Origin: a virus
Reading direction: 5' to 3' (one strand)
DNA: 64,000 bases
IMG/VR virus record: IMGVR_UViG_3300045988_122711
Shown: piece after piece, positions 1 through 29,113 of the stretch
Layout of the letters: each line of letters starts with the position of its first letter
How positions within the stretch are numbered: position 1 is the stretch's first letter
Translations under genes and position numbers: made by a program
The notes under the pieces: model-generated
The model's database searches: none
Seen by the model: the letters and a program-made list of their open reading frames with translations, nothing else
Told to the model about the DNA's origin: nothing

Positions 1-6
1 GAGTTT

Positions 7-1050
7 TTGAATAATGTAGCAGATTTCCTTAGCGGCATTCCAGAGTATGATGCTGTTGTGGAATCTATAGAGTCAGAATCAGATAATATTTTAAATAATG
101 AGAAAGAAGGAAGCACAGGAGGTGGTACAGCACAGGCTAATGAAGAAGGCGGTGCAGTACGCGCTGAGGAAGATGGCGATAAAAAGGGAGATGGAGAAGG
201 CAAAGGACAATCCAGAACAAATGTCGAAGTTGAAGGAAATGTCGAATTACCTGGATCTCAAGAAGGAAAAGTAGATAACTATAGAAAGAACGGAGATAAG
301 TTCTCTGATATTTCCGAAGTTACTTTATGGCTACTTAGAAGGGCTGCCGGCACAACTTCTATCCCGGAAGGAGAAGAGGTTTATGTAGAGGGAGATGAGG
401 TTAATAGTATTATGACCGATATGGAATCAAGGTACGGGATAGACACCATCAACCACTCACATACGACTAAGGCTATAAGGGATCTTGACGGCGTGTCAGG
501 TTATAAAGTAGAATACGGCTTAACCTTTTTGACATACGATCCTTTTATTAGAATATCCAATCCAAGGAAAGAATCTAAGGCCGCAAAAGACGAGCCTCGT
601 ATATCCGAAGAACCGCTTACTCACATATCAAGGGTGACAACCCCTTATTTCCTGTATGGTGGTGACGAAGCATATACATCTGTTCCGGCTAAGGTAGAAC
701 CTATACCGGAGAAGATAATGGGTCGTAATGGTATTAAATTTGGTATGAGTGTAGTCGAGCTAACCAAATTAGGGTACAAAAAAGCTGGTGGAAACTGGAT
801 ATATAAATTCTATATGAACTCAGGTGTGTATGATTTGTATAATATCAGTACCGGTGAAGCGTTTAGGGCAAAACCGGATCTTGGAGTTAAGATAAGTTCC
901 AGTGCATTCATCCGTTCTTTATCTCAATCTGGTAGAAAAATACAAAATATGATGAGTAACATGAGCCAGGAAGAGATAGATAGGAATAAGAATCTTGTAG
1001 AAGGTTCTGATAATTCGGATTCGATAAATGAGTTAAACAAGGAGTGTTGA
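7..1050 (+). CDS. hypothetical protein (probably 5'-truncated by window edge); G/E/K-rich low-complexity N-terminal part
   Basis: long ORF open to window start; stop at 1048-1050 immediately followed by next gene; no recognisable motif. Confidence 0.45.
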   Translation: MNNVADFLSGIPEYDAVVESIESESDNILNNEKEGSTGGGTAQANEEGGAVRAEEDGDKKGDGEGKGQSRTNVEVEGNVELPGSQEGKVDNYRKNGDKFSDISEVTLWLLRRAAGTTSIPEGEEVYVEGDEVNSIMTDMESRYGIDTINHSHTTKAIRDLDGVSGYKVEYGLTFLTYDPFIRISNPRKESKAAKDEPRISEEPLTHISRVTTPYFLYGGDEAYTSVPAKVEPIPEKIMGRNGIKFGMSVVELTKLGYKKAGGNWIYKFYMNSGVYDLYNISTGEAFRAKPDLGVKISSSAFIRSLSQSGRKIQNMMSNMSQEEIDRNKNLVEGSDNSDSINELNKEC

Positions 1051-1066
1051 GTATGAGAAGGAGATT
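1019..1066 (+). repeat. R2 direct repeat copy 1 (~48 bp; contains AAGGAG + ATGAGAAGGAGAT start)
   Basis: near-identical to 1636-1683 (2 mismatches); spans stop of gene 1 and start of gene 2. Confidence 0.8.
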
Positions 1067-1583
1067 TTTTAATGCTGCGGATAATTTCGTGGGAGGATGT
1101 TATAATAAGTTATCCAATGAAGATATAAAAAGGCTTGGAGGGAAAAGACCTTATGTATGTCAGTTTAATAAAATTCATATACATATAGGACCTGTATTAA
1201 AAGATCATGATTCTGATGTTAGTTACATAATGTTTAATAGTAATTGGAATTATGGTGGTTATGATTCTATGGTTTATAATCATAGCAATAATGGTATTTT
1301 TATATTAGGCGAAAATAAAATTGGTAATATAGAAAATCATATACAGGATCTAACATATTGGTACGAATATGATCCAAACATTAATGAAAATTATTGTTAT
1401 TATTATTATGAAGCTGATAATAGTGGAAATGCTATTAAGTTGAATGGTGAGTTTAGTGATGTTAGCACTGTTTTTAACATTCCCAGTTTGAAGGTTACCA
1501 CTCTTCGTGATGGCAGTTTGAGTTTTCCAGAGATTTATATAGAAGGAGTTTGGGATCCGTCATTGTATAAGTCGATTTTATAG
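1053..1583 (+). CDS. small N/Y-rich protein, MRRRF N-terminus (possible receptor-binding/tail accessory cassette protein)
   Basis: ATG at 1053 preceded by AAGGAG; track ORF uses GTG 1044; N/Y/G-rich composition; member of 4-gene MRRR[FY] family. Confidence 0.45.
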   Translation: MRRRFFNAADNFVGGCYNKLSNEDIKRLGGKRPYVCQFNKIHIHIGPVLKDHDSDVSYIMFNSNWNYGGYDSMVYNHSNNGIFILGENKIGNIENHIQDLTYWYEYDPNINENYCYYYYEADNSGNAIKLNGEFSDVSTVFNIPSLKVTTLRDGSLSFPEIYIEGVWDPSLYKSIL

Positions 1584-1584
1584 T

Positions 1585-1592
1585 TAATTTTG
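1585..1592 (+). promoter_or_regulatory. TAatTTTG Bacteroidetes-type -7 box
   Basis: exact TAnnTTTG match 16 nt upstream of R1 repeat. Confidence 0.35.
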
Positions 1593-1607
1593 AAAAAAGT
1601 TAATTAT

Positions 1608-1635
1608 TATGGGTGTCAAATGTCAGATAGAAAAA
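1608..1635 (+). repeat. R1 direct repeat copy 1 (28 bp, identical to 2288-2315)
   Basis: TATGGGTGTCAAATGTCAGATAGAAAAA identical at both sites; here opens only a 12-codon mini-ORF and abuts R2. Confidence 0.85.
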
Positions 1636-1683
1636 TTCGATAAATGAGTTAAATAAGGAGTGTTAAGTATGAGAAGGAGATAC
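1636..1683 (+). repeat. R2 direct repeat copy 2
   Basis: matches 1019-1066. Confidence 0.8.
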
Positions 1684-2247
1684 GAAGATGTTTCAAGTCT
1701 TGTTCAGTATCAGTTGAAGACCAATCAGCAGGGGAATATAGAGGTTTATGTTGATGACAGGTTTGTTGGAAACGTAAGTGAAGGAGTCTGTAATTGGAAG
1801 GATATTGAATACAAGAGTAAGGTTACTATATCTTTGAAAGGAGTCGAGGATAAGGCTAAAACTTCAAGTAAAAGAGTCGGTCCTTATTGTCACATTTATA
1901 GCATATTTGGAGGGAATGAATCTTATCATGCAGGTCCGGATAGTAATATAAAAAAGAGTCCGGTTACCACCTTTATAATGTATTGTTATAAAAATGGGGA
2001 TATTACAACTACCACTACTTATACTAAAAATTTATCTGGAACTCTTCAGATAGGTAAAACACAATTGACTATCAATTACAAACAAAGTAAAAGTCAGTCT
2101 TTCTCCGGTGGTTCTGGAGATTATGTAACATCCGTATCTGATTTCCCTTTTGTTACTGGTCCAGGAAATGATAGCGTTGAGTTCGAAGGAGAGGGAAGAT
2201 TGATAGTTGAGACAGAGGCTTCGCATTATGAAATAGAAGTTTCATAA
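1669..2247 (+). CDS. small Thr/Ser/Gly-rich beta-type protein, MRRRY N-terminus
   Basis: ATG 1669 within R2 repeat; track ORF uses GTG 1660; MRRR[FY] family. Confidence 0.45.
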   Translation: MRRRYEDVSSLVQYQLKTNQQGNIEVYVDDRFVGNVSEGVCNWKDIEYKSKVTISLKGVEDKAKTSSKRVGPYCHIYSIFGGNESYHAGPDSNIKKSPVTTFIMYCYKNGDITTTTTYTKNLSGTLQIGKTQLTINYKQSKSQSFSGGSGDYVTSVSDFPFVTGPGNDSVEFEGEGRLIVETEASHYEIEVS

Positions 2248-2262
2248 TTTCTATTTTTATAC

Positions 2263-2270
2263 TATCTTTG
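2263..2270 (+). promoter_or_regulatory. TAtcTTTG Bacteroidetes-type -7 box
   Basis: exact TAnnTTTG 18 nt upstream of ATG 2289. Confidence 0.4.
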
Positions 2271-2287
2271 TCTAAAATATTTATCAC

Positions 2288-2315
2288 TATGGGTGTCAAA
2301 TGTCAGATAGAAAAA
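2288..2315 (+). repeat. R1 direct repeat copy 2 (contains start codon of 2289 gene)
   Basis: identical to 1608-1635. Confidence 0.85.
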
Positions 2316-4547
2316 AAGGAAAATGAAATAAAACGGGTTAAGGCTCCTAACGGGGAGCCTTCCGTCCTTTACGAAAGTGCTTTAAAAGTATTAGGAAACA
2401 GCGAGCGGGCTCTTCAGGTATGGGCTAAGGCTTACACTCCTGGTTTTTTGTCGTATTACGGTCATTGGAATAACCCGGCTCCAGGGGAGATGTTTAACAC
2501 CGATCCCAATGACGAACCTCTTTTAGAAGATGTGCTGTCGTATATGAAGCGTCAGACTTATTTTGCTGATCCTTTAACGGCTCAGGATGTTAAGGATGTA
2601 AGGGATTTCCTTTTGTCTACTCATTATTTTTTCAATGCGTCTTCATTGTCTAATGCTATTCTCTTCGATTTTTATGTAGATGGCAGTTTGATACTGAATG
2701 AGCAGAAATTAAGGAGATCCGGTTTGTATGATGAAACAGAAATAAGTCGTATTTTATCCGATCCTTCTGTTTTAAACGAGGTTTCGACTTCCATGAGAAA
2801 GTTAATAGATTCTTCTATTAACGAACATGATAGGGAAAAGGATAATTATTTTATGTCTGTTGACTATCAGTATGGTCCTATTGTTTACAAGGAGGGAGTG
2901 TTTAACCAATTTGGTAAAAAAGTACCATATAATCCTTCTGAGCTTTATTGGGCTATGGGCAAAACAGTAGCCGGCATAAAAAACTTTTCTGAATTTTCAT
3001 CTGCTTTTGAATCGTTGAGAAATTCATATCCTGAACTGGTTGAGAAATTCGTTTCTGATAAAGAATTTGCCGAATCTATGTTTGATGAGTTCTCATCTAC
3101 GAATAAGATTCCGGTAATAAACATAGAAGGGGATGATGTGGTAGAAGGCAAGAGAAGATCCTTGTCTAAGCTACAAGATCTGTCTTATTACAATCCTGGC
3201 AAAATAGAGTTCCTAAGAGCTCGTATATCGGCTTATTTACATAGGGCTAATGCCGACACCGAATCCGATTTAAGAAGCATGATATGGGATATAGAAGAGG
3301 CTTGTACGTGGTTTGGCATAGATATAATAGGGACATCGGAAACTTATGATGGCACAGAAGAATCTTTGAATAAGATAGATAATTTGATGCTGGATCTTGA
3401 TATTTATGTGGCCAGGCATAATGATGTAAATTATGCTCCAACGCTGGCATCTTCTATAGATGATGTTCTTGGTGATAGCACAGATTATTATTCTGAATTA
3501 TTGCCGGAGTATATGGATAATTTGAATATCGTTTATTCTGAATCCGATATAGACCCAGTAGAGGCATTTGAGAAACATTCATTGCTTAAGGTAGGAGATA
3601 ATCTATATCAAAGGATCAGCAAAGATGATATTAACGAGATGTATCAAATATCAACAGTGTTAGCCAAGCACAACCTAACTCATTTTTCTACTAAAATATA
3701 TCCTGAATCTTGTTTTAAGAACGGCGTTTTGGATAAAGAGAAAGTACGGAACGTAGATAATAATACGCTCATGGATTCCATTAAAAAATACGTCAGATCG
3801 TTCATGGATTCTCAGAACACGGAGGACATGATAATGACCAGGATGGCGTTTGGACACCCGGCGGTACTTGACGTTCCTTACGTGGATGTGGATCGGGAGT
3901 ATAGTCGATACATGAACAAAAAACAAGATAGCGAAAACCCATTATCCTTATTCGATTTATACCAATCTTACCTTGACAACAAACTCCATAAAACAAAATT
4001 ATATGATAATGCCTATAAGTATCTTGACTTCAAACCTGGTCCATCTTTGGGCCTTATTTCTGATGATCCTGATATTTTGAAATCAATAGAATTATCTTTA
4101 TCTGGAAAAGACAGGTTGATGTTGTTTGATTATAGCATGACCAGTACCGACCCTTCTTTATCAGAATTGTTTTATTTGGAGAAGTATGACCCTTTGTATG
4201 CCGGGAATGATTTTGAACACTATTTTTACACCAGGCACCCGTATTTGTTAAAAGAAAAATCGGGCCCTAATATCGTAGAGCAAGATGGTGTTATAACAGC
4301 CGAAGGTATTTATGATAATTTTATAAGAGTAGGTAATAAGATATGGTCTAAAGTAAGCGAGAGTAGTTCCGGCTCTATCTACCAAAATCTGACAGGAACC
4401 GAATCAGAGGTAAAATACGATTCTACTCAGAAGGCTAAGACGGTAGAAACCGATTACGCTCCATACCAAAACAGATCTGGCTTGACGCAAGACATGACCG
4501 TAAGCAAGCCTGAATTGGATGATCTTAACAAATTAGAATGCAGGTAA
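2289..4547 (+). CDS. large hypothetical protein (752 aa), possibly virion/tail-associated
   Basis: long ORF; ATG 2289 just after promoter box (track start TTG 2268 lies inside promoter); no motif recognised. Confidence 0.5.
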   Translation: MGVKCQIEKKENEIKRVKAPNGEPSVLYESALKVLGNSERALQVWAKAYTPGFLSYYGHWNNPAPGEMFNTDPNDEPLLEDVLSYMKRQTYFADPLTAQDVKDVRDFLLSTHYFFNASSLSNAILFDFYVDGSLILNEQKLRRSGLYDETEISRILSDPSVLNEVSTSMRKLIDSSINEHDREKDNYFMSVDYQYGPIVYKEGVFNQFGKKVPYNPSELYWAMGKTVAGIKNFSEFSSAFESLRNSYPELVEKFVSDKEFAESMFDEFSSTNKIPVINIEGDDVVEGKRRSLSKLQDLSYYNPGKIEFLRARISAYLHRANADTESDLRSMIWDIEEACTWFGIDIIGTSETYDGTEESLNKIDNLMLDLDIYVARHNDVNYAPTLASSIDDVLGDSTDYYSELLPEYMDNLNIVYSESDIDPVEAFEKHSLLKVGDNLYQRISKDDINEMYQISTVLAKHNLTHFSTKIYPESCFKNGVLDKEKVRNVDNNTLMDSIKKYVRSFMDSQNTEDMIMTRMAFGHPAVLDVPYVDVDREYSRYMNKKQDSENPLSLFDLYQSYLDNKLHKTKLYDNAYKYLDFKPGPSLGLISDDPDILKSIELSLSGKDRLMLFDYSMTSTDPSLSELFYLEKYDPLYAGNDFEHYFYTRHPYLLKEKSGPNIVEQDGVITAEGIYDNFIRVGNKIWSKVSESSSGSIYQNLTGTESEVKYDSTQKAKTVETDYAPYQNRSGLTQDMTVSKPELDDLNKLECR

Positions 4548-4589
4548 TTTTTGTACATATATATAGTTTTTTCATAGTTATAATTTGGG

Positions 4590-4615
4590 AAGTGAGGCTT
4601 GTGAAAGTCTCACTT
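4590..4615 (+). other. subterminal hairpin (AAGTGAG...CTCACTT), candidate left-end structure of IS200/IS605-like element
   Basis: 7-bp stem hairpin in AT-rich non-coding stretch upstream of tnpB-like gene. Confidence 0.3.
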
Positions 4616-5071
4616 TTCTCATATATGTACGTATATCAATAACATACAAGAAAAGTTAGATTTTCATTGTTTATGAATTATTTTTATTAAGTTTGCAATA
4701 TTAGTTTCAGGAAGGGATTATGGAAATAAGGAAAAAGTAAGAACCGAACGTAACTAATAACAGTAGGAAATGAGAATCAGTACCATCAAACGTAACAACA
4801 GCATTCATCTTATGTATAAAAACATTATGAATGATTTAGGTCAATTAAGAACTGTAGTTTCAAAATCCTATATTTATAATCTGATACAAAATCAAACCGG
4901 ATTAAGTATCAGAACTATATCCCATGTCTTGAATCACACAAAAGAACAGGATACAGATTCTTTGTGAAAGGCATACATTTTCCTACATTTGTGTGTTCTT
5001 TAGTTTTTAGATAGTCAAACTATTTGTTTATTTTATCAATAATAATCATATTTGTTATATAAATAATTAAA

Positions 5072-6259
5072 ATGAAACTCGTTGAAAGATATATAGTTAA
5101 AGACAACCGGTTTGAGGATATTTGCCTCAAATCCGGTTTGTTGTATAATTATGTTCTTTACAACATTCGTCAAGGAATTTTTTCTGGTAACTATTTAAAG
5201 GAATTTGATTTATCAAACAAACTTTGCAAAGAAAACCAATTCGATTTCAGGAATTTACCTAATCATGTTTCACAGCAGGTAATTAAACAGGTATTTAAAA
5301 ACATAAAATCCTGGATGAGATTAAAGAAAGATTTTGAAAAGAATCCTTCGAAATACGGTAATCATCGTCCTCATCTTCCTTCGTATAAGAAGGGCAAAAA
5401 ACAAAACATGGTTGTTTTTACCAACTGTGATTGTAGGATAAAAGATGATAATCATATCCATTTTGTCAAAAACATAATCAAACCGATCAAAACAAATGTA
5501 AATAAAGATGAATTAAAACAAGTTAGAATAATACCTCAAGCTACCTGTTATGTAGTAGAGGTAGTTTATGAAAGAAAGGAAATTGATCTTGGTTTAGATA
5601 AAGACAATTTTCTTTCGATTGATTTAGGATTGAATAATTTATGTTCATGTATTAGTAATGTAGTTAATTCTTTCATTATAAACGGACGAGTTATGAAATC
5701 AGTAAATCAGTGGTACAATAAGAAGAAAGCTAAGTTGATGTCTTTCATTGGTAATAAGGGAACTTCAAATAGAATAAGAAAAATTACTTTGTTTAGAAAT
5801 TGTTGGATAGAAGACAAATTGCACAAAATCAGTAGATACATTGTAGACTTTTGTAAATCTAACAATATAGGAACAATCATCATCGGATTAAACAAAGAAT
5901 GGAAAAACAAGATAAATATTGGTAAACGAAATAATCAACATTTTGTTTCTATTCCTCATTCTAAGTTGATTGAAAAGATTGTTTACAAAGCAAAACTTTT
6001 AGGAATAGAGGTAATTACTCATGAGGAATCCTATACATCAAAGATTGATCATCTTGCTTTTGAACCTCTAAAGAAACAGGAATCCTACTTAGGTAGAAGG
6101 AAGAAACGTGGATTATTCCAAAGTTCTGTTGGAAAGATATTAAATGCTGACATAAACGGAGCTATCGGGATAGCAAGAAAAGTAATCGGTGATTCTTTTA
6201 TTGGAAAGATAATCGATAGTGGATTTGTGTTTAATCCAGTTAGAGTAAATATTTTGTGA
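5072..6259 (+). CDS. tnpB: TnpB-like (IS605 OrfB / Cas12-ancestor) RuvC-fold protein; Zn-finger absent and RuvC-II Glu apparently replaced
   Basis: P.YKKGKK..F motif; RuvC-I SIDLGL; HEESYTSK (TSK motif); RuvC-III NADINGAIGIARK; no CxxC pairs between RuvC-II/III; expected hhhEDLN is TIIIGLNKEW. Confidence 0.7.
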   Translation: MKLVERYIVKDNRFEDICLKSGLLYNYVLYNIRQGIFSGNYLKEFDLSNKLCKENQFDFRNLPNHVSQQVIKQVFKNIKSWMRLKKDFEKNPSKYGNHRPHLPSYKKGKKQNMVVFTNCDCRIKDDNHIHFVKNIIKPIKTNVNKDELKQVRIIPQATCYVVEVVYERKEIDLGLDKDNFLSIDLGLNNLCSCISNVVNSFIINGRVMKSVNQWYNKKKAKLMSFIGNKGTSNRIRKITLFRNCWIEDKLHKISRYIVDFCKSNNIGTIIIGLNKEWKNKINIGKRNNQHFVSIPHSKLIEKIVYKAKLLGIEVITHEESYTSKIDHLAFEPLKKQESYLGRRKKRGLFQSSVGKILNADINGAIGIARKVIGDSFIGKIIDSGFVFNPVRVNIL

Positions 6260-6546
6260 TACAAGGTTGAATCTAATAGATAAAATGAGTAATTTTAATA
6301 ACATTTAAGTTTTTCATGGTATTAGTTTAGATTAGTGTAGATCAGGGCTCGCAGTGATGCGGGCCCTGGTTTGATTTAAAAAGTATTAAAATATTTGCTA
6401 TTTAAAATCCTGTTCCTATCTTTGCTCCAGAAACAATGAACAACGAGATCCCACCTCTGGTTGTTTGATGTTGAAAGATATTTTTGGCTCATTAGGGTTT
6501 GTCATAGTGGGATCTGACATTCTCTTTTGGGCCTATTTTTTTTATC
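6260..6546 (+). ncRNA. putative omega-RNA/right-end region of TnpB-like gene (structured non-coding)
   Basis: 287-nt non-coding region immediately 3' of tnpB-like ORF with 10-bp stem hairpin 6343-6368 and second pairing GAGATCCCAC/GTGGGATC; position matches TnpB omega-RNA architecture. Confidence 0.35.
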
Positions 6547-7431
6547 ATGGATAAAGTTTCTGTTTTTGAAAGTTCGGATTTTGGAGAGCTTAGAATTATT
6601 GTAGATCCAAAAGGAGATGTTTGGTTTGTGGCGTCAGATGTGGCTAAATCTCTTGGATATATAAATGCTAAAGATGCGGTAAAAAGACATGTAGATGATG
6701 ATGATTCTATGCTTTTGCAAGTATCTGATAATCAATGGGGCGTAAAACGATCTATATTGAAAACCAGATATATAGATAGTATAAGAATAATTAATGAATC
6801 TGGTTTATATTCTCTTATATTATCTTCAAAATTAGAGTCTGCTAAGAGATTTAAGAAATGGGTAACATCTGAGGTTCTTCCTTCTATTCGTAAAACAGGA
6901 GAATATAAAACAAGTTCCGGTGGAAAGGGAATTTTGGTCCCTGACTTTTCTAATCCGGCAGATGCAGCAAGAGCCTGGGCTGATCAGTATGAAGCTGCTC
7001 AGAGAGCTATAGCCGAAAAGTCGCAGGCAGAGGCAGAGAAGCAACAAGCTTTGAAAACAATAGAAGAACACAAGCCCGATGTAGAATTTGCCGAGTCTTT
7101 TAGGAAAGTAGACCATAACAATATGTGGCTGATTCGTGATATTGCAAAGAAGTTAGAGCAAAATGGTGTTATTATTGCTGAAAAGAATCTTCGCTCATTC
7201 CTTGAAGAAGCTAAATTCATGTTTAGGAACGGTCTTGGCAAATGGGAGCTATATAGTAATGTTGTAGTTAAAGGGTATGGAGTGTATAGGTCTTATTTCA
7301 TAGACAAGTATTCTGGTGATAGAATCAATCAACAAACCATATACATGACAGGCTCCGGATATGAAGTGACCTTAAATGGTATAAAAGGAAAACTCAAAAA
7401 TGTGTTTCTAAAATATGGCAAGTTTGCTTAA
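6547..7431 (+). CDS. Bro-N domain / KilA-C (ANT-like) phage antirepressor family protein
   Basis: N-term FGELRIIVDPKGDVWFVASDVAKSLGY...A...H is classic Bro-N; C-terminal half resembles KilA-C/ANT. Confidence 0.75.
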   Translation: MDKVSVFESSDFGELRIIVDPKGDVWFVASDVAKSLGYINAKDAVKRHVDDDDSMLLQVSDNQWGVKRSILKTRYIDSIRIINESGLYSLILSSKLESAKRFKKWVTSEVLPSIRKTGEYKTSSGGKGILVPDFSNPADAARAWADQYEAAQRAIAEKSQAEAEKQQALKTIEEHKPDVEFAESFRKVDHNNMWLIRDIAKKLEQNGVIIAEKNLRSFLEEAKFMFRNGLGKWELYSNVVVKGYGVYRSYFIDKYSGDRINQQTIYMTGSGYEVTLNGIKGKLKNVFLKYGKFA

Positions 7432-7443
7432 GTTTATTTACAG

Positions 7444-7482
7444 GTGGTGTTTTGAAAGAATAAAAAACACTACCTTTTTTTT
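7444..7482 (+). terminator. rho-independent terminator
   Basis: GGTGGTGTTTT...AAAACACTACC stem followed by T8. Confidence 0.7.
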
Positions 7483-7608
7483 GTTTCTGTTTTTGCTGAA
7501 AATATTTCTCTTCTATAAGAAATAAACACACCTATATTCCACCTTATAATCATGAACTTTGTTACGTGCTTCATGCACGTATGTTTAACAATTAAATACT
7601 ATAAAATT

Positions 7609-8616
7609 ATGGGTGGTGATAAAATCGTCCTTTTAGATGGAGCCGGGGCTAACGGTGGTGGTGCAGCCACTAACGGTCTTCTTTCAATGATTCCCGGCAT
7701 GTTTGCTAATTTGATAGGTGGTAATAAAATGGATCCGAATCTGGTGGCGGCTTTGATGAACGGTCGTAACAACCAGGACGGTTTCGGTGGGGCTAACGGT
7801 TGGTGGCTCTGGATAATTGTTTTGTTCTGGCTGTGGGGTGGACGCGGCTTCGGTAACGGTTTTGGAAATGGCGGTGATTGTTGTGCCAATGGTTTGCCGG
7901 CTCAGTTGAATAACGATTACGGTCGTGAACTTTTGATGCAGGCAATTCAAGGTAATCGTAGCGCCATAGATCAGATTGCTTCTGCTTTGAACTGTTCTAC
8001 TACTCAACTTCAGAACGCTATCTGCAACGTACAGGGTGCTATTGATAAAGTAGCTGGTCAGGTAGGTATGACTTCTCAGGCTGTTATCAACGCAGTTCAA
8101 CAACAAGGTTGTGAAATAGGAAATCAAATCAGCTCTTGCTGCTGCAATCTGAGTTCGTTGATCAATCAAAGCACTTGCCAGACTCAGGGAATGATTACTC
8201 AGCAAGGTTTTGATAACCAGCTTCGCACGTTGGAACAAACCAATATCTTGCAGAACGGTCTCAACCAAGGTCTGGCTAACAATCGTGAGCAAGCTACAAG
8301 CCAATTCAATATCTTGTCTGCGAAACTTGACGCCCAAACCGTTATGATCAACGACAAATTCTGTCAGTTGGAAATGAGGGAGATGCAGAACACTATTGCT
8401 CAACTTCGTGAAGAAAAAGCGGCTTTGACAGCTTCGGCATTATCTCAGCAACAAACCCAGAATATCGTTGGTCAATTACGCCCGACGGCCGTCCCGGCCT
8501 ACCCCTCTTGTTCTCCTTACCAGGCTTATACTTGGGGACAGGTATTCGGAGGAGGTTGCTGCAATAACGGATGTGGATGTAACAACGGATGTTGCAATAA
8601 CAACGCTGCTGTCTGA
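7609..8616 (+). CDS. Gly-rich / Asn-Gln-rich / Cys-rich low-complexity protein with one TM-like segment and CCNNGCGCNNGCCNNN C-terminus
   Basis: ORF with ATG at 7609 (track TTG/ATG 7552 upstream); GGxGxG N-term, WWLWIIVLFWLW hydrophobic segment, C-terminal AACGGATGT-type codon repeats. Confidence 0.45.
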   Translation: MGGDKIVLLDGAGANGGGAATNGLLSMIPGMFANLIGGNKMDPNLVAALMNGRNNQDGFGGANGWWLWIIVLFWLWGGRGFGNGFGNGGDCCANGLPAQLNNDYGRELLMQAIQGNRSAIDQIASALNCSTTQLQNAICNVQGAIDKVAGQVGMTSQAVINAVQQQGCEIGNQISSCCCNLSSLINQSTCQTQGMITQQGFDNQLRTLEQTNILQNGLNQGLANNREQATSQFNILSAKLDAQTVMINDKFCQLEMREMQNTIAQLREEKAALTASALSQQQTQNIVGQLRPTAVPAYPSCSPYQAYTWGQVFGGGCCNNGCGCNNGCCNNNAAV

Positions 8617-8639
8617 TTTTATTAAGAGAGGAGGCTAAT

Positions 8640-9053
8640 ATGGCTTGTGTTTCTAAAATAGGATCGTTGTATGAGATGGTTACGAAGAATGTTATTGTCA
8701 GTACGACAAATACAGTCTTCGGTATTAACCCACGGGCTTGGATCGCCCTTCCGTGTGAGGGTCTTATCCTTCTTAAGATAAGGCAAGTAGTCCCCACAGC
8801 CGGAAGTGCTCTACCGGTACAGATTGCGGTCCCGGCAAACAGCACAGTTTCAACAGTAGGAGCCGACACCTGTTGCCCGGTTACGGGAGTGAATGTCGTG
8901 AACCCTATTAACGTAGCTGTCACGGGTGCTGCTATGGTAAATGGCACAGAACGCCTTCTGTACTTCAATAAAGTTCGTGGCGTGTTAAGATTAATGGATT
9001 GTTGTGTTCCGACAACAACAGCCCAGGCGTCTGAAGTTAAAGCAGGTAAATGA
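8640..9053 (+). CDS. hypothetical protein (137 aa, Val/Thr/Cys-containing)
   Basis: ORF 24 nt after previous stop, followed by strong terminator. Confidence 0.45.
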   Translation: MACVSKIGSLYEMVTKNVIVSTTNTVFGINPRAWIALPCEGLILLKIRQVVPTAGSALPVQIAVPANSTVSTVGADTCCPVTGVNVVNPINVAVTGAAMVNGTERLLYFNKVRGVLRLMDCCVPTTTAQASEVKAGK

Positions 9054-9061
9054 TTTCAGTA

Positions 9062-9091
9062 GGGTGATGAAGATCATCACCCTATTTTCAC
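9062..9091 (+). terminator. rho-independent terminator
   Basis: AGGGTGATGA/TCATCACCCT 10-bp stem, 3-nt loop, then ATTTTCA. Confidence 0.7.
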
Positions 9092-9103
9092 CTAACTAAT
9101 ATT

Positions 9104-9598
9104 TTGATCATGTTTTCAGATTTGAAGAAAGGGTTTCAGGTACATACCCTTGATACTAATACAGTACCTAAATACGAATTGGGAAAGGTAGTAGCCGTAT
9201 CCGAACCCAGGTATCTTCCTCCTCAGCCAGGTCAGTATCAGGCGATGCAGACCCGCGTGGTGGATCTGACGGTAGAGCTCACTGGCGAAACCAAGACCTA
9301 TACGGTCCCGGAATCCCAGAATGTGGCTAAGGCTATGGGCATAACATTATCTACCAGCATAGATCCGATTATGAACGAACTGAATGCTATAAAAAACACC
9401 AGTCAAGACATAATAAACAGCGTAGATGCCCATCGTGCCAAGATAGAGGCTTGTGAATCTATATTAGAAGACATCAATCCGGCATTCAAACAAACGAGAG
9501 AGCAGGATCGTAAAATAGCTGGTATAGAAAATAAGGTGAATGACCTTACTGATTCATTCGAAGATTTAAAGAAGTTAATTGTAGAACGTTTGAAATAA
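9104..9598 (+). CDS. hypothetical protein with C-terminal coiled coil
   Basis: ORF; C-terminal heptad-like region. Confidence 0.45.
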   Translation: MIMFSDLKKGFQVHTLDTNTVPKYELGKVVAVSEPRYLPPQPGQYQAMQTRVVDLTVELTGETKTYTVPESQNVAKAMGITLSTSIDPIMNELNAIKNTSQDIINSVDAHRAKIEACESILEDINPAFKQTREQDRKIAGIENKVNDLTDSFEDLKKLIVERLK

Positions 9599-9605
9599 GT
9601 ATAAT

Positions 9606-9974
9606 ATGATAGTATATGATTTAAATTCAGGACACAGAGAATATCCTGGATATGACGAGATAGAAGACAGACGAGGTGGAGGCAGAGGCAGAAGCCGGCG
9701 TTCTGATGGGACGTACATGGGGTACGGTGGTGGTATTTACGACCATTACGGTATGCATGAGAAGATGAAGGAAATGGAAGAACGCGAAAACGAGCTGGAA
9801 GAAAGGGAAAGAAGGCTTGAAGAGCGCGAACGTCGTCATGAAATGGAGGACCGGGAATACCGGAGGATGGGTTACGAATCCTACCCGACCGATTACTATG
9901 GAGACGACAGATACTACGGTGACGGACCTCAGATGCGTAGAGGTCGCGGACGTGGCAGAGGTCGTTCTTATTGA
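9606..9974 (+). CDS. RGG/RG-box and ER-repeat protein (RGGGRGRSRR ... EERERRLEERERRHE ... RRGRGRGRGRSY)
   Basis: ORF with striking Arg-Gly and Glu-Arg low-complexity; candidate nucleic-acid-binding/condensing protein. Confidence 0.45.
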   Translation: MIVYDLNSGHREYPGYDEIEDRRGGGRGRSRRSDGTYMGYGGGIYDHYGMHEKMKEMEERENELEERERRLEERERRHEMEDREYRRMGYESYPTDYYGDDRYYGDGPQMRRGRGRGRGRSY

Positions 9975-10067
9975 GGAGCAGACGCAGAGGATCCAGCTTA
10001 TCAGAAATATGTAGATACTTACGGCTACCATTTTTCTAATGCTCTCGCTGATGAGGCGGTAAAGAAG

Positions 10068-10361
10068 ATGGTCAACGTCGATGGATCCAAGAGGATCTGG
10101 AAGCAGCCGGAAATAAAAGATATTTTTGAAAAGTGCGGAGCGAAGAAGCCGGATAAAGCGACATGGGGCGATGTCCAATATGTCTTTGCAATGTACTATT
10201 CGGATGGTTTTCCGAAGGTCTTCAAATGTGAGAACGAGTTGGTGAAAGCTACGTTAATGTATTTGGATGATCCGGATGCTCCCGAAGGAGTAGCCTTTAT
10301 AAGATGGCTTGCCGTGCAAGATTACCTCGGCGAAAAAATAAACTGGAAGGATCTGACCTGA
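10068..10361 (+). CDS. hypothetical protein
   Basis: ORF. Confidence 0.35.
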   Translation: MVNVDGSKRIWKQPEIKDIFEKCGAKKPDKATWGDVQYVFAMYYSDGFPKVFKCENELVKATLMYLDDPDAPEGVAFIRWLAVQDYLGEKINWKDLT

Positions 10362-10832
10362 GATCCAGACCCAGGTCCTTCCGGTGGTGCGGGAGCCATA
10401 GTAAAAAATATGATTCCCGCATTCCCGTTTTTCCCGTTTGGAAAAAAAAGGAATAAAAATATTATACCGGTCGGCGGGCAATAGAATACCCGTGGCCGGT
10501 TTGTTTCACATAACTTTTTTTTTGGACATGAATATAGCACACGAATCTAAATCGAATAAAACCCCCTTGTATTTAATAGGAGAGTTGATTGGCGTACCGA
10601 ATACGGTTATGGACTCAGCATTGCATGAACTGAAAGATAGAATAGACAAAGACCCTAAATATAAAGATGTTAAAAATTGGCTCGAATCTTTACCCAAGAT
10701 CTGAACCTATTTTTCCCAATACCAGGCCCGATGCGATTTTAACGTATCGGGTTTTTATTTTAATTTATATTGTTTTATTTTAAATCTAATTAATTTATGA
10801 ATGTCGTACTTTTGTTGAAAAAGTATTTTTTT

Positions 10833-11060
10833 ATGGAAAATAAGGAAGATTACGTTGGTTACGAAGATCAAGAACTGTGTAACCGGTATTACAAAGAGGC
10901 TGAAGCCATGAGGCAAAAGCAGGACTGGTCTCGGCTTAGGGCTGCCCCTGCTCCGGCTAAGGGAACGCCATCGCCCGGCTGGGGTCAGCTTGGACGTGGA
11001 AATGAAGTTCGTGTCAAGTACGTTAGCATCAATTCAGGATTGGGAGGAGATAGGTTATGA
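10833..11060 (+). CDS. hypothetical protein
   Basis: ORF; ATGA overlap with next gene. Confidence 0.3.
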   Translation: MENKEDYVGYEDQELCNRYYKEAEAMRQKQDWSRLRAAPAPAKGTPSPGWGQLGRGNEVRVKYVSINSGLGGDRL

Positions 11061-11275
11061 CCGTAGAAGAATTAGCCAGTAAAAGATACGGTGGCGAATT
11101 TGTTTTCATGTTTGGTCATCTTGAAGGTAGAACAAGATTCGTTTTTGAATGCTTTGATCCCAGACCTGATCACGAAGGTAAAAACACTTACATGGTTTCC
11201 TATTTTGAAAAGGGACTTCATAGAAGAGATGTGGTAGATGTGCCGTGTTATATGAATGTTTTGCCAAAATCATGA
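11057..11275 (+). CDS. hypothetical protein
   Basis: ORF, start overlaps previous stop. Confidence 0.35.
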   Translation: MTVEELASKRYGGEFVFMFGHLEGRTRFVFECFDPRPDHEGKNTYMVSYFEKGLHRRDVVDVPCYMNVLPKS

Positions 11276-11475
11276 AAACACTACTTTTAAATGTACCTGT
11301 ATTTTCCGGTAAGATTATTTCTCCTATATGGATTAAGGCTGTAAGAGATTTTCAATCCAGACCGAAGGAAGAAAGAGACTCGTATTGTTCGGTTTGTGGA
11401 TGTACGGAAGGGTGTAACCTGTGCGATGATATAAGTAAATATAGGATTTATGAACAATTAAAATATTACAAATAA
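11245..11475 (+). CDS. hypothetical Cys-containing small protein
   Basis: ORF; CSVCGCTEGCNLC cluster. Confidence 0.3.
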   Translation: MLYECFAKIMKTLLLNVPVFSGKIISPIWIKAVRDFQSRPKEERDSYCSVCGCTEGCNLCDDISKYRIYEQLKYYK

Positions 11476-12248
11476 TGGAATTAAAAGATTTTAAAGATGT
11501 AATTAGAATGATGACAAAAGAAGAGTTCGAATCAACAATCAATGAAGATATTAAATTCGTTGAAAGATTCAAGTATTTTTTTAAACATGATGATGCTACG
11601 AGGATATTGGAACACATCGAGTCCGTGTTAAAAGCATCAGTGGACTACTACTATCCTAATCATTCTAAACCTGAAGCAGAACCAGGAGACATGGGAGAAG
11701 TTTCTGACGGATACCATACTTTCAATGAATTGTATCGGTACCGTATGTTGTATAATGCCGCCTTCTTTAATTTATTAGCCAGAAACGGACAGGTTGAAGT
11801 TTGCAAATCAAGGAGACACAGCGACGGAGAAAGATGCTTCGGTTCTGATGACTGGTTTATTGTGATGGCAATGTTACCCACTGGTCAGGTGTCTAATCAC
11901 TATGAAAGCAAATACTGGGATTTGTTTGATGTTCCAGAAAGAGAAACCGCTTTCGAATATGATGGCCATACACCAAATGAAGCCGCAGACAGACTTGAAC
12001 AGTATCTTTTTCGAAAGAAATCGGGTTTAACATTTGAAGAAGCTTTTAAATTTTTGAAAAATGGTAATAATATCAAAAGGCATGGGTGGAAAAATGAACA
12101 TCTTGATGCTTTTAGAAAAAGTGGTGTTAGCTCAATTCATGTGGAAAAGTCATTGATCATAATTATAAATGAAGAAACACGGAGGCTGACATCGTGGAAT
12201 CCAAGTATAGAAGATATATCGTCGAATGACTGGGAGGTTGTGAAATGA
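11475..12248 (+). CDS. hypothetical protein with DUF2829-like C-terminal domain
   Basis: C-term FEEAFKFLKNGNNIKRHGWKN...SWNPSIEDISSNDWEVV resembles phage DUF2829 (GW...DWE[IV]V) signature. Confidence 0.45.
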   Translation: MELKDFKDVIRMMTKEEFESTINEDIKFVERFKYFFKHDDATRILEHIESVLKASVDYYYPNHSKPEAEPGDMGEVSDGYHTFNELYRYRMLYNAAFFNLLARNGQVEVCKSRRHSDGERCFGSDDWFIVMAMLPTGQVSNHYESKYWDLFDVPERETAFEYDGHTPNEAADRLEQYLFRKKSGLTFEEAFKFLKNGNNIKRHGWKNEHLDAFRKSGVSSIHVEKSLIIIINEETRRLTSWNPSIEDISSNDWEVVK

Positions 12249-12520
12249 GTTTGTTTGTTTGTTCACGATGTGGCTGTATAGATAATACAGCCACATCGTG
12301 TTACTGGGCTCTTACAAGACCTTGTAAGAATCGTATTTACGATAAGTCGCTAAAGGGATATGAAGGTAAGCCTCTTTGTTCTGAATGTGCTGCTATTGAA
12401 TATGATAAGGAAGACCAACTGGTGGTGGTTCCTGGAACGTGGCACGGTAAGTTCAAGAAAGAATGGCCTACTGAAGAAGAAAAGAAGCATATTGGTAAAA
12501 ACGGTATTTTAAATTATTGA
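12245..12520 (+). CDS. zinc-ribbon protein
   Basis: CSRCGC...C...CSEC; ATGA overlap with previous gene. Confidence 0.45.
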   Translation: MSLFVCSRCGCIDNTATSCYWALTRPCKNRIYDKSLKGYEGKPLCSECAAIEYDKEDQLVVVPGTWHGKFKKEWPTEEEKKHIGKNGILNY

Positions 12521-14012: not shown

Positions 14013-17000
14013 ATGACATCAACGTGTATTATTAAAAGAGATAATAAAAAGAAAGTTGTTTCTGTCTCTACCAGATCAGGGGACAGGTCTATGTTGTTTG
14101 ATAAAATAGCATCTGTTCCTCTTATGGAGAACAGGGAGCGGGCTACTACTGTTTTTAAAACCGTATTTTCCAACAAGTTCTTAAAGGCTTTTGGCGACTG
14201 GAGAAAGAGAGTGCCTATCAACAAACAGGCTTATAATAAGGTAAAATCCAACATCGATCTTATCCCAGAAGCCTATAGAGAAAGGGTGCTGGATAAGGCT
14301 TCTAAGATGAGTAATCCTGTTCTTGTATCAAAATCAGATGCAACTTATGGGATTCAAGAATCAGGCTTCGGATTCTATAGCCAAGATCTGGGTGATAATA
14401 TTATGTTGGTGGATGCTATGATCCCATCAAGTATTTCCGTACCGGAAGAACCAGGAATAGACGCCGGGCAGTATTTACAAGATGCTATATTTTCGGACTT
14501 CACTCCCGTATCTGTGGTACAGGATAAGGGTGTTAATTATATGGTTATAAAAGACGGTCTTAAGATATTTAGCCCAGAAGAGCTACCAGAAACAGATTCT
14601 AATCCTGTGGGTGTAACGTATCAGACTGGAGAGCCTCGTTTGTTTTTCATGAACGATCGTAGTCAATTATTTGAAGATTACGGAGAAGCTCTTCGCTCTG
14701 GCGGGAATGATATCAGAATAGGGTTCTTATCAGGCACCGTTCAAGAATCTACCGTGGATGGCGTGGCAGACATTACTTACAAAGCTGGAAAGTATGTTCT
14801 TAATAATCCCAAATCTTTTATACCGGTCATGACCGCTTCTGCTTCTACTTCTTTATCAACAAAAGGTGGTATAATTAACTACCTTATAAAGAAAGGTCTT
14901 TTGTCCGGATCTAAGATATTCGATCCTGAAACAAGAAGCTATTATCTTACAGGAGAAGGTCATACAGGACAAATTAGACTTTTCAATTCAGCCTTATCAT
15001 ACACCGAGCTCCGTAATCATTTTGGTTCCGATGTTTCCATGAACGACCAAGGTATGATAACCATAAGCTCGTTGGATAACAGTAAGGTAACTATGAGACT
15101 CGCCACCGGAGGAACGGAAAGGATTAGTAGGGAACAGATAAAGAACGATCTTAAGTCAGGAAGATACAATGAATTGGACGCCAAGTACGATCATTTTGAT
15201 GCGCTTGTAGTTTCATTCATATTAGAAGATAACGATCTTTATGCTGATACTAAAGCTAAGATCGTATCAGATTATAGCAGGCAGGAACGTGACCAACGAA
15301 ATTCTATTGTCGAGATACTGAAAACGCTTGGCGTTAGTGTCATAGGTATGACCGACTATATAGAGAAGTACCAAACCAAATACGGGCACGAACCTTCTGC
15401 TAAGGCATTGGCGGATATTGCTAATAACGTAATAGCAGTTGGTGAAGATGCTACTTTATCTGATTTAGTAGAAGAAACAGCCCACTTTCTTGTAGAGGCA
15501 TACAGAGATCAGAATGCTGTTGAGGCTGTTCTGCAAGATGTAGAAGGTACGGAAGAGTGGAACCAGTATGCAGGTCAGTATTATAATACATACGGTAAAG
15601 CGTATGAAGGAGCTGAGCTTGATAATGCTGTTAGGAGAGAAATTCTTGGAAAGATCCTCGCCAGGGAGATGCAGGCCGGCACAGCACAGGCGCCGGTAGA
15701 GCCCACCTCCTTCCTGGGGCGCGTCCGGCAGCTTTTCTCTGGAATCGTAAGCTGGCTTAAATCAGCTTTATCAACCCAAAGACAAGATTTGAATAACGTT
15801 ATTAAAAACATTCGTGATCTTGCCATTACTGACATAGATAAAGGATTTGACACCTCTCTGTTAAAGGATAATGACTTTACATTATACTCCCTTTCTTCTA
15901 TGAACAAGAACAAGTTTCTTGAGTCTAAGATCAGATCACTAAGAAAAACATTAAGAGACTTACGTCAGATAAGCTCTGATAGGGCTGTAACTACGTCTAT
16001 GACCCTTGCTCAGCTTAAGACCATAGAAGATAAGATAAATAAGGTAGAGACCGAAATAGACAAGAATGAGATGGCGGCTGCCATGAACAGCATGATCTCC
16101 ACAGCCGAAGCTCAGGTCAGATACTTAAGTAATGTGGTGAACACCATCCTTCATGGTGATACCAAAGACGGTAAACTTCACTTCAATACCAATGATCGAA
16201 AGAACGTAGATATTATCAACAATCAGGTTCTTCCGATCATGAACGATCTTCGAGGATATATCCGTAATAGAAGTACCGAATTTGATGAACGTGAAAAGCA
16301 GGATTATACAAATAGGATCAATACCGTCATTGCCGACATCAATGGTATTCAGTCTGATATTAAATCAGTACAAGACCTTGATGAAAGTACGTTGCTTGAT
16401 AAGTTAATGAACGAACTTCATGTGCCGGCAGATAAGGTAAAGAGAGTAAAAGAATTTTTTGACAAGGTTCAACATGATGTTTCTTGGATAAGTAGGTGGT
16501 TTGGTATATTAGAGCATTCTTCCAGTCCGTTCAATAACGCTCTTGGAGCTATGATTGCCAAAGATAATTATAATGCGATGGTAAATGCCCAGCCCGCTAT
16601 ATCTGACTTCCTGGCATATACTAAAAAGCATGGTTTCAACAAATCCGAATTTGAAAAACTACTTCAGAAAGTAGATGGCAAAACTTCCAATTACCTTCGT
16701 AGTGCTCTTGATATGGCTAAATACGATCGTAATAAGAAGCTGGCACAGATGCGTGCGTTTGCAACTGCCATGAACATAGAAATATCAGAAGAAGAAATCA
16801 ATGATGTGGTTGACAATAATCGTAATTACGTATTTAAAAGAGAAGTAGTTGACAAGGACGGAAATACGGTTACTGAAAACGCTAAATTTAAGCCCTCATC
16901 TGACAGGGTTAATACTGATATTTTCACCATCGAGCAGGAAAAGATCTATACAGAACAGATGGAAAAGTGGGATGCTGAAAATTCAGAATTGGAATTTAGT

Positions 17001-20459: not shown

Positions 20460-20672
20460 ACGAAGAATATCGGACTTGCATTGTTTTTGTATGATTCCAA
20501 TATGTTATATTAGCATCGTCAAAGAGTAGATTGTACGTTTTTTGTTCTTACTTGAAAGATTATGTAGGTTAATTTTTTTCTGAAATTGTTTTCTTACCGG
20601 TTCTTAGTCAGAGATGATAGGGAACCGGTTTCTTTTATGTTGTCAATTATTGCTATCTTGCAAACAAAAATC

Positions 20673-21290
20673 ATGAGACGAAGATTTCAAATAGGGATGG
20701 GGGTAAATCCCTCGCTTATAATCAATAAAGGCATATACATCCAACATGTAGATGGAGGATTATATACGAAAGAAAATTGGTCTAATAAAGGATATTCCAA
20801 TGATCTATGCAATGGAATAGCTCTTGTAGATAAAGTGTGTTTTGTTATAGCCACCGAATATATTGGCACATTTCGTTGGGGTAAGGATGGAGAAATAGAC
20901 AATATATTTGCACAAAATAGTTCTTATATGGAGACCGTTAAAAAGGATTATTGGGGGCGTGAAAATCAGAATGCGTATCTTGAATATGATACCAGTAATG
21001 AAAATTACGCTTTTAATAAAGCTAATAGCTATTTATTTAAAAATGGTCAAAATGGATATGTAGGTGGCGCCGGAGAGTTTTTTTTGATATCATTGTATGC
21101 GAATGAAATAAACGAATGCCTTTTAATGGTAGGAGGTACGATAATGAGTAATAGAATGTGGACATCCACTCAATCTACACAATTTACCTATTCGTGGTAT
21201 TATGATATAAACATCCAAGGAGATCATTTGAGTACAAGTACAAGGAGTAATCCACGTTATGTCCGTCCTTTTACTGAATTAATTTTATGA
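20673..21290 (+). CDS. MRRRF-start N/Y/W-rich protein (possible carbohydrate-binding/tail accessory)
   Basis: ATGAGACGAAGATTT start homologous to starts at 1053/1669/21295; track ORF begins at upstream TTG 20586. Confidence 0.45.
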   Translation: MRRRFQIGMGVNPSLIINKGIYIQHVDGGLYTKENWSNKGYSNDLCNGIALVDKVCFVIATEYIGTFRWGKDGEIDNIFAQNSSYMETVKKDYWGRENQNAYLEYDTSNENYAFNKANSYLFKNGQNGYVGGAGEFFLISLYANEINECLLMVGGTIMSNRMWTSTQSTQFTYSWYYDINIQGDHLSTSTRSNPRYVRPFTELIL

Positions 21291-21294
21291 AATT

Positions 21295-22032: not shown

Positions 22033-22033
22033 C

Positions 22034-22078
22034 AACAATCCCCAACCGTACGCCTATTGTATGGTTGGGGATTGTTGT
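22034..22078. terminator. bidirectional terminator between convergent blocks
   Basis: CAACAATCCCCAACC / GGTTGGGGATTGTTG perfect 15-bp stem, 15-nt loop. Confidence 0.7.
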
Positions 22079-22121
22079 AGTTACCATCTTTTCTTGTATA
22101 AGCAGAACATGAAATAAGTTT

Positions 22122-22610: not shown

Positions 22611-22611
22611 A

Positions 22612-22848: not shown

Positions 22849-22855
22849 GTTATTT

Positions 22856-25419: not shown

Positions 25420-25423
25420 GGCA

Positions 25424-29107: not shown

Positions 29108-29113
29108 AATCCC

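Follow-up and report, generated by a model that had tools for sequence, protein, structure and literature searches.

Two alternative gene cassettes probably stacked in a single slot of an Epsilon crAss-like phage genome

In the mosaic genomes of lambdoid phages and mycobacteriophages, non-homologous genes swap in one slot between conserved neighbours by recombination in the flanks, and in T-even phages localised recombination is driven by homing endonucleases. A slot of this general kind is described here near the left end of a 64,000-nucleotide stretch of viral DNA (IMG/VR record IMGVR_UViG_3300045988_122711), which as a whole is called the window below. In it, two small genes, A and B, lie between the 3' end of a large gene, S, and a gene for a protein of 752 amino acids (aa), and two short sequences, R1 and R2, are each present twice.

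Several described systems resemble parts of this locus. Promoter-early stem-loop (PeSL) sequences are associated with modular shuffling and with mini-circles in T4-type phages (Arbiol et al. 2010, PMC2839356; Comeau et al. 2014, PMC4122927). The TnpB nuclease of ISDra2 takes its guide from the ~16 nucleotides (nt) that flank the right end of the element, requires a transposon-associated motif (TAM) and makes staggered cuts 15-21 bp from that motif (Karvelis et al. 2021, PMC8612924). Cleavage of the empty site by TnpB, followed by recombination, retains the transposon (Meers et al. 2023, preprint, 10.1101/2023.03.14.532601). The internal proteins of T4 are diverse and unrelated to one another, and have one capsid targeting sequence in common (reviewed in PMC3012670).

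A single phage record, crAssE-Sib (OR575929, 151 kb), matches the window, with 92% identity over positions 1-5000 and 97% over positions 20000-40000. CrAssE-Sib, for which the genus Epsilonunovirus has been proposed, is an Epsilon crAss-like phage (PMC11054128) and, judged by these matches, the window belongs to a gut phage of the same group, near crAssE-Sib. The slot between S and the 752-aa gene appears normally to hold either A or B. In the window, both would have been stacked in it, with their edges duplicated by one illegitimate join, and the direct repeats formed in this way would then recombine. We assign this reading a probability of about 0.85, and no finding speaks against the stacking model at its core. 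The features of the slot are the following.

7-1050, plus strand: 3' end of S, 347 codons, open at the window edge (from the list of open reading frames, ORFs; the crAssE-Sib orthologue is a 2208-aa 'structural protein', 85400-92026 in OR575929)
1019-1065, plus strand: native copy of R2, comprising the S tail, a spacer and the start of gene A (repeat comparison)
1053-1583, plus strand: gene A, 176 aa, MRRRFF…, an ORFan allele of the slot (alone in 41 of 80 loci)
1580-1607, plus strand: A/U-rich 12-bp hairpin in the 3' flank of A (fold z-score -3.4; kept in the A-only locus L035)
1608-1635, plus strand: displaced inner copy of R1 (exact 28-mer)
1635-1636, plus strand: putative illegitimate joint (same joint in 8 IMG/VR and 4 metagenome contigs; not in crAssE-Sib)
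1635-1681, plus strand: displaced inner copy of R2, comprising an out-of-context S tail and the start of gene B (repeat comparison)
1669-2247, plus strand: gene B, 192 aa, MRRRYE…, the other allele of the slot (alone in crAssE-Sib and in 16 of 80 loci)
2263-2270, plus strand: -7 promoter-like box TATCTTTG of the 752-aa gene, in a B-type flank (sequence match)
2288-2315, plus strand: native copy of R1 at the start of the 752-aa gene (likeness goes back to 2274)
2289-4547, plus strand: the conserved 752-aa gene, right anchor of the slot (ORF list; 93-99% identity across 80 IMG/VR loci)

R1 is an exact 28-mer, TATGGGTGTCAAATGTCAGATAGAAAAA, with only two copies in the window (1608-1635 and 2288-2315) and none in 100 shuffles; a preliminary description of the window had reported it correctly, together with its provision of the start codon of the 752-aa gene. 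Its likeness reaches upstream, to 42 nt at 88% identity (1594-1635 against 2274-2315). R2, first described as a 48-bp module, is a real repeat with 2 mismatches (96% identity), but it is 47 nt long, at 1019-1065 and 1635-1681, so that its ends had been misplaced by 1-2 nt. A 43-nt core of R2 has just two copies in the 64-kb window and none in shuffles. R1 and R2 abut at 1635/1636, with A1635 common to both. TAnnTTTG boxes are indeed present ahead of both R1 copies (1585-1592 and 2263-2270), as first noted, at distances of 15 and 17 nt.

R2 begins with the final 31 nt of S (…DSINELNKEC, then TGA) and, after a spacer of 2 nt, continues into ATGAGAAGGAGAT, which is nt 1-13 of the gene that follows (MRRR). 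R1 is made up of the end of a 5' untranslated region (UTR), the ATG at 2289 and the first nine codons of the 752-aa gene. With the joint marked by a slash, the layout of the window is S-R2-A-box-R1/R2-B-box-R1-752, and that of crAssE-Sib is S-R2-B-R1-752, with a single R2, a single R1 and without the 616-nt A unit. The inner R1 opens merely a 12-codon mini-ORF (1609-1647, MGVKCQIEKFDK and a stop), and the inner R2 holds 31 nt of S coding sequence out of context. In crAssE-Sib, and likewise in 57 of the 80 related loci, R1 and R2 are each present once, within ordinary coding or 5' sequence of S, the cassette gene and the 752-aa gene. They are best taken as duplicated gene edges, not autonomous elements, which are repeated because two alleles of the slot were stacked.

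The preliminary description had instead treated R1 and R2 as dedicated modules, and it may be asked whether they are specialised for cassette exchange, in the manner of PeSL, or form a shared translation-initiation leader. R1 does have a promoter-like box. In the A flank, the -7 box of the downstream gene, which is of Bacteroidetes type (TAATTTTG, 1585-1592), lies inside the hairpin; in the B flank the box is likewise present, but a fold check found no hairpin. The repeats also recombine, as the contig L250, the protein P0022 and the L065-type hybrids of A flank and B promoter (described below) indicate. However, R1 and R2 are single, ordinary gene ends in the genomes with one cassette, no further copies are present in the 64-kb window, and two more MRRR-start genes in the window, C and D, have the MRRR codons in common with A and B and not the surrounding DNA. 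A modular role for the repeats is thus quite improbable.

The slot was surveyed in two samples. The first is a census of 80 IMG/VR loci anchored on the 752-aa protein, at 93-99% protein identity (best tblastn segment); the second consists of 112 loci retrieved by match to the R2 core. In the census, A alone is present in 41 loci and B alone in 16. Seven loci have A-B with the joint of the window and one has B-A, while an additional TnpB element accompanies A in 10 loci (element E1), B in three (E2) and A in one (E3); a single locus is cut off at the contig end. The R2-core sample contains ~76 A, 29 B and 7 tandem loci, and no third slot allele was found among its 112 members. The earlier proposal of an exchangeable cassette locus is borne out by this comparison of related genomes, in which the slot takes the forms A, B, A-B, B-A, B-A with the A-B joint, and an A/B chimera.

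No similarity between A and B is detectable beyond MRRR, either by BLASTP or by profile-profile comparison, and their flanks are 96-100% identical around interiors that cannot be aligned. By these comparisons, A and B are alleles that alternate in one slot and are not homologous, rather than duplicates that have diverged. The tandem order and the repeated 5' and 3' ends might also be produced by a tandem duplication of one gene and subsequent divergence, with the repeats as the least-diverged remnants. Such an origin is very improbable given the contrast between flanks and interiors, and given that in most genomes one or the other allele stands alone at this site.

S, too, exists in two forms, with only 76% DNA identity over its C-terminal ~300 codons, which include a variable low-complexity stretch (window 1-1018 against 3001-3976 of locus L001). 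Both S-tail types are found with either cassette, in independent assortment, and recombination between S and the cassette must therefore be frequent. The change at R2 from 76% to 97% identity with crAssE-Sib was considered as a parental junction and rejected: crAssE-Sib has the rarer S-tail type, which is unlinked to the cassette.

In the A-B joint, …CAGATAGAAAAA is fused to TTCGATAAATGAG, 31 nt ahead of the S stop; the break in R1 falls inside its A7 run and has a microhomology of 1 nt (A). Pattern scans of IMG/VR and of ENA/JGI metagenome contigs, in which an MRRR start had to come after R1, turned up two classes of joint and no third. The A-B joint recurs without change in 8 contigs from IMG/VR and in 4 from ENA/JGI metagenomes. 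In the B-A joint, found in 8 IMG/VR and 3 ENA/JGI contigs, the same …CAGATAGAAAAA is fused to TAAGAATCTCG, 65 nt ahead of the S stop. Both joints exit R1 after …GATAGAAAAA and fall in the homopolymer GAAAAAAAGG, the S side of each is preceded by GGA or GGAA, a microhomology of 1-3 nt, and the duplicated units measure 616-712 nt. No junction types after …GATAGAAAAA other than these two were found in the IMG/VR scan. There is also no shared core recombination site at the cassette boundaries, of the kind that integron-like or other site-specific gene cassettes carry: the joints use S-tail positions -31 and -65, with only 1-3 nt in common, and the native slot boundaries are plain coding sequence.

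Mixed strains with common flanks make bubbles in assembly graphs, and a tandem might in principle be a chimeric contig assembled from A and B strains. However, the joints are novel sequence, R1 followed by S tail, that cannot be built from k-mers shared by A-only and B-only genomes, and they recur across many projects and assemblers, the A-B joint identically in at least 12 contigs and the B-A joint in 11. The tandems are therefore taken to be real, and an assembly artefact is hardly credible. The recurrence of the joint, together with its absence from crAssE-Sib, also upholds the initial impression that 1635/1636 is a recombination joint.

Under the stacking model, the two alleles would have entered the event with common flanks, on the left R2 (the S end and ATGAGAAGGAGAT) and on the right the -7 box, the 5' UTR and the first codons of the 752-aa gene (R1). 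A single illegitimate join in an ancestor would have connected the 752-aa ORF of an A-type genome, at its nt 27, with the S gene of a B-type genome, 31 nt ahead of the stop, and the product would be S-R2-A-R1/R2-B-R1-752. The direct repeats would then be substrates for homologous recombination, which could delete either cassette, swap cassettes, or move a cassette together with the joint to another genome.

Several variant forms fit this last step. One metagenome contig, L250, has the B-A order with the 31-nt joint; it would be the expected product if a circle or paired crossovers had moved 'joint plus A' into a B genome via R1. P0022 is an in-frame chimera of A (1-63) and B (140-192) that reads as a deletion inside a tandem. 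In L065-type loci, the A 3' flank is joined to a B-type promoter, and gene A in other A-B tandems has ~93% protein identity to the A of the window despite the identical joint. The duplicated flanks therefore appear to keep recombining, as seen indirectly, via the recombinant forms in the population.

These features invite comparison with PeSL shuffling. In both cases, ORFan genes that are not essential lie between short repeats, and recombination between the copies inserts, deletes or replaces genes, as in the A-only, B-only, A-B, B-A, L250 and P0022 forms. A circle excised between repeats and reinserted at R1 would yield the L250 arrangement, although the circle is a proposal of the present analysis. 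A PeSL joins a promoter to a stem-loop terminator; here a promoter-like box is present in both flanks, and a hairpin around it in the A flank. PeSL sequences, however, are dispersed, with many copies per genome concentrated in hyperplastic regions, whereas the 64 kb contain R1 and R2 just twice each, as unique gene ends duplicated once, and the putative promoter here is of the Bacteroidetes -7 type, unlike that of PeSL. The slot behaves as in mosaic replacement of accessory genes. PeSL shuffling is its nearest counterpart, but the dispersed multi-copy family that defines PeSL is missing. Compared with ordinary replacement of 'moron' or accessory genes, what differs is that the rarer stacked intermediate has been caught here, scar included, in both orders as well as in a reassorted version.

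The TnpB elements of the slot may be relevant to how the break in R1 arose. In 14 of the 80 census loci, an extra 1.3-1.4 kb between the cassette and the 752-aa gene corresponds to three distinct IS200/IS605-type elements, E1, E2 and E3, all of which encode TnpB only (Pfam OrfB_IS605 and the Cas12f1-like TNB). The E1 TnpB has 410 aa, matches OrfB_IS605 (1e-19) and TNB (2e-12), and has the RuvC D/E/D motifs SIDLG, HEESYTSK and NADVNGALNI; no tnpA was seen in the E1 elements examined. E1 is present at R1 in ~12% of related genomes. It is inserted exactly between (T/C)TAT and GGGTGTCAAATG… (GGGTGTC), without target duplication and with precise empty and occupied sites, and its right end, …CATAACAT, abuts GGGTGTCAAATG…, i.e. 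R1. The insertion preserves the start codon of the 752-aa gene, for which the right end gives 'AT' and the target 'G' (L009, L022 and others; ~5998-6003). It also splits the gene from its promoter by 1.4 kb, and expression must therefore come from within or through the element.

The right end of the E1 family, …AATTTAATATTTTTCATAACAT, occurs at ~25-30 different sites in epsilon crAss-like contigs (L177-L246), with flanks that diverge at once. R1 is the commonest of the E1 flanks (18 of 70), and the left flank ends in TAT at 9 of 9 readable sites. E1 is an insertion sequence that has proliferated within a phage lineage. If the rule from ISDra2 applies, the E1 guide should be R1, because the right end of E1 abuts it. 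By this analogy, R1 would consist of a TAM (TTAT or CTAT), a predicted 20-nt TnpB target, GGGTGTCAAATGTCAGATAG, and A5. The motif ahead of R1 varies among loci (TTAT-, CTAT- and CAAT-GGGTGTCAAATGTCAGATAGAAAAAAAGG): TTAT or CTAT is found at the inner R1 of both tandem types, and CAAT or TAAT in 35 of the 41 A-only genomes. Both joints lie 24-25 nt past the putative TAM, at the far end of the predicted target.

It may be, then, that the break was a double-strand cut by the TnpB-omegaRNA complex of E1, and that the other allele was copied from a co-infecting genome with an overshoot. Guided by R1, E1 TnpB would act on co-infecting genomes without E1 and cut them where the 752-aa gene begins. The right-hand end of the cut would invade a genome with the other allele, synthesis would go back through that allele and overshoot into the S tail, and the new strand would be end-joined to the unresected left end. 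Of the two breakpoints, a cut with an overshoot of this kind would leave one fixed, in R1, and the other variable, at -31 or -65 in S, as is seen. We infer such a cut only tentatively, and the odds are against it. The wider proposal, that E1 TnpB drives cassette exchange and stacking in phage populations, with CAAT as a TAM-escape allele in A-only genomes and, as a companion idea, the MRRR[FY] start as a minimal virion-targeting leader of unrelated ejected effectors with a fast turnover, comparable to the capsid targeting sequence of T4, is somewhat unlikely.

A number of points weigh against a TnpB trigger. At 24-25 nt from the TAM, the joints lie farther out, by a few nt, than the 15-21 bp measured for ISDra2. 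Rfam, applied to the window and to L009, matched no family, and hence no omegaRNA was recognised. With no third junction type in IMG/VR, the recurrence of the break rests on two events, and these may not be independent, as the 31-nt joint may be a 34-nt deletion derivative of the 65-nt joint. The TAM-like CTAT is present in 16 of 16 B-only genomes, and E1 in none of them. The A7 run is itself a plausible site of slippage or template switching. Finally, the hypothesis was formed after the data were seen.

The main rival to the TnpB trigger involves the same stacking and no nuclease. A polymerase would stall or slip in the A7 run of R1 and switch template to the S tail of a co-infecting genome, ~650-700 nt 'behind'. 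The position of both joints inside GAAAAAAAGG, the GGA or GGAA ahead of each S-side joint with its 1-3 nt of microhomology, and the short units of 616-712 nt, typical of slippage-type tandem duplications, are all in keeping with this route, and no other junction at this site points to a recurrent cut. It gives no reason for the A parent of that tandem, A-B, to have come from the TAT-bearing minority (6 of 41 A genomes), or for the break to coincide with the distal end of the site used by a TnpB element, although both observations are circumstantial. We consider that template switching has a little under an even chance of being the correct account.

The TnpB trigger would also extend what is known of TnpB systems. 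The exact position of E1 at R1, the TAT left flanks, the expected guide and the joints at the far end of the target resemble those systems. The distance of the joints from the TAM differs from that in ISDra2, and cleavage here is putative. The known outcome of TnpB activity is retention of the transposon, whereas the outcome proposed here is the stacking of a neighbouring heterologous gene in a phage-phage co-infection.

The window has a TnpB element of its own, outside the slot.

5013-6304, plus strand: non-autonomous IS200/IS605-type element with tnpB at 5072-6259 (395 aa; Pfam OrfB_IS605 and TNB; 42% identity to the E1 TnpB)

This element is of the same family as E1 and ends in …AATAACAT beside an AGAT motif; the corresponding empty site in crAssE-Sib is AGAT/TTAAG. 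Its neighbours are a small LacI-like repressor ORF (4770-4967) and an antirepressor gene (6547-7431).

A second topic is the N-termini of A and B. The sequence ATGAGAMGRAGATWY occurs four times in the window (1053, 1669, 20673 and 21295), as the preliminary description had noted, against 0 expected, and the ORFs of at least 40 aa in the window that start with MRRR are these four only. Besides A and B they are the following.

20673-21290, plus strand: gene C, 205 aa, MRRRFQ…, downstream of the 2148-aa ORF (ORF and motif)
21295-22032, plus strand: gene D, 245 aa, MRRRYQ…, downstream of the 2148-aa ORF (N-terminal ~42 aa homologous to B)

C and D had been placed on either side of the 2148-aa ORF, but both lie downstream of it. 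Nor do the four form one family, as had been supposed: B and D share their N-terminal 42 aa (hhalign probability 87%, E 4e-6), while A has no similarity to B, C or D past MRRRF in BLASTP or profile comparison. Among the MRRR-start ORFs (60 aa or longer) in all the loci retrieved, five clusters can be distinguished, A (MRRRFF), B (MRRRYE), C (MRRRFQ), D (235-245 aa, MRRR[FY][EQK]) and E (~149 aa, MRRRFE). E (149 aa, MRRRFEN…) takes the place of D in crAssE-Sib and in many other genomes, and is unrelated to it. The complete genome of crAssE-Sib has four MRRR[FY] ORFs, B, C, E and F, all in the late block and adjoining giant virion genes; F (240 aa, MRRRF start, 63285-64007 in OR575929) is directly upstream of TnpB and muzzle genes.

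The second Arg codon (AGG, CGA or AGA) differs among the MRRR genes. Upstream of C and D the DNA bears no relation to R2, and only the MRRR codons are held in common. The constraint is therefore on the peptide and not on the DNA, and a translation leader, which had also been suggested, is unlikely. The MRRR[FY] starts are non-random. A Tat or Sec/lipoprotein signal was considered for A, B, C, D and F and rejected, as there is no hydrophobic h-region. The best 12-residue Kyte-Doolittle means are 0.6 in A, -0.2 in B, 1.1 in C, 1.3 in D and 0.5 in F, and only E alleles reach 1.6-2.0; the best stretch contains 3-6 charged residues in A, B, D and F and one in C.

The closest analogy to these genes may be the internal proteins of T-even phages, which are likewise unrelated small proteins with a short N-terminal peptide in common, encoded at a variable late-region locus. 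Unrelated small proteins with only a short common N-terminus are what A-E and F represent, with only B and D sharing more. The T4 proteins are packaged in the virion, and the prohead protease removes their leader; what the MRRR[FY] genes offer in this respect is their position next to giant virion genes. The T4 leader has ~10 residues and MRRR[FY] has 5, and the likeness would be one of resemblance, not membership.

The C/D locus (20460-22032; L097-L176) is as variable as the A/B slot. D alleles are only 27% identical, and C is in many cases cut short, or other ORFs (MIENRF…, MKKNSILQ…) stand in its place. Codons 22-24 of D contain a G9 tract (21358-21366) that has 6-11 G in related loci, and its length sets the frame. 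Tract length switches the frame in ~45% of D-type loci; for example, G10 is intact in 10 loci and G9 broken in 9. The cause is either phase variation or an error of assembly at the homopolymer. In A, a T6 run at codons 5-6 (1065-1070, FF) is also found as T5 with a frameshift, as T9 with an extra F, or broken by TTC (L087, L089, L282 and others), and ~5% of A genes are frameshifted at codon 5.

Ratios of nonsynonymous to synonymous codon differences are 0.98 for A, 0.65 for B, 0.56-0.6 for the 752-aa gene and 1.05 for the S tail; by this measure A and B look like real but weakly constrained genes. No credible match to A-D was found in Pfam, PHROG or NCBIfam, and all four are ORFans confined to their lineage. 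Word-indexed homology searches with A, B and C returned only close, lineage-restricted relatives, many with deletions, and many variants of the three (for A and B, P0006-P0014 and P0036-P0046 among others) have internal in-frame deletions of 9-70 residues; the three genes either tolerate large deletions or are decaying.

A HMMER profile of A, run against 1.84 billion representatives, found its own cluster and fragments and one weak MucBP-repeat protein. In the latter, residues 84-139 of A (1302-1469) have a weak summed match (E 1.6e-4) near a repeat boundary of a Gram-positive adhesin with eight MucBP repeats; this match is not relied on, and Pfam gave no MucBP match to A at E <= 1. AlphaFold2 models were unusable, with pLDDT 30 for B (14 sequences) and 27 for C (6 sequences). 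The receptor-binding or tail-accessory role, the beta-like fold and the host-range switching put forward in the preliminary description are thus candidate readings only. Sequence searches of the PDB with the 752-aa and 2148-aa proteins found nothing, and the 752-aa protein has no notable match in Pfam or NCBIfam either. A and B are accessory late genes, lineage-restricted and under weak constraint, and their products are probably associated with the virion.

No tRNAs were found in the 64-kb window, and it has no sign of stop-codon recoding. A diversity-generating retroelement (DGR) repeat was sought in 7400-12300 and none was found; the DGR of crAssE-Sib sits elsewhere. The 2148-aa ORF (14013-20459) is unbroken in the window, and is annotated in crAssE-Sib as two overlapping coding sequences (103085-103930 and 103830-109487), which suggests that one of the two genomes has a frameshift or an annotation split.

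Epsilon crAss-like phages are abundant and uncultured members of the human gut virome, and the turnover of their accessory genes is poorly known. The slot between S and the 752-aa gene provides a clean, population-documented case of allelic replacement, in which the stacked intermediate has been kept with a datable scar and the flanks have recombined further. The stacking of alleles is in itself an ordinary mechanism, unusually well documented here; the putative TnpB target at the breakpoint would be the new lead, beside the MRRR[FY] motif. The MRRR[FY] N-terminus marks a few otherwise unrelated late genes beside giant virion proteins, and is a candidate sorting signal. If the link to TnpB is true, the role of TnpB would extend from the retention of transposons to driving the exchange of neighbouring phage genes, and the coincidence at R1 bears on whether IS605 nucleases may shape phage genomes as homing endonucleases do in T-even phages.

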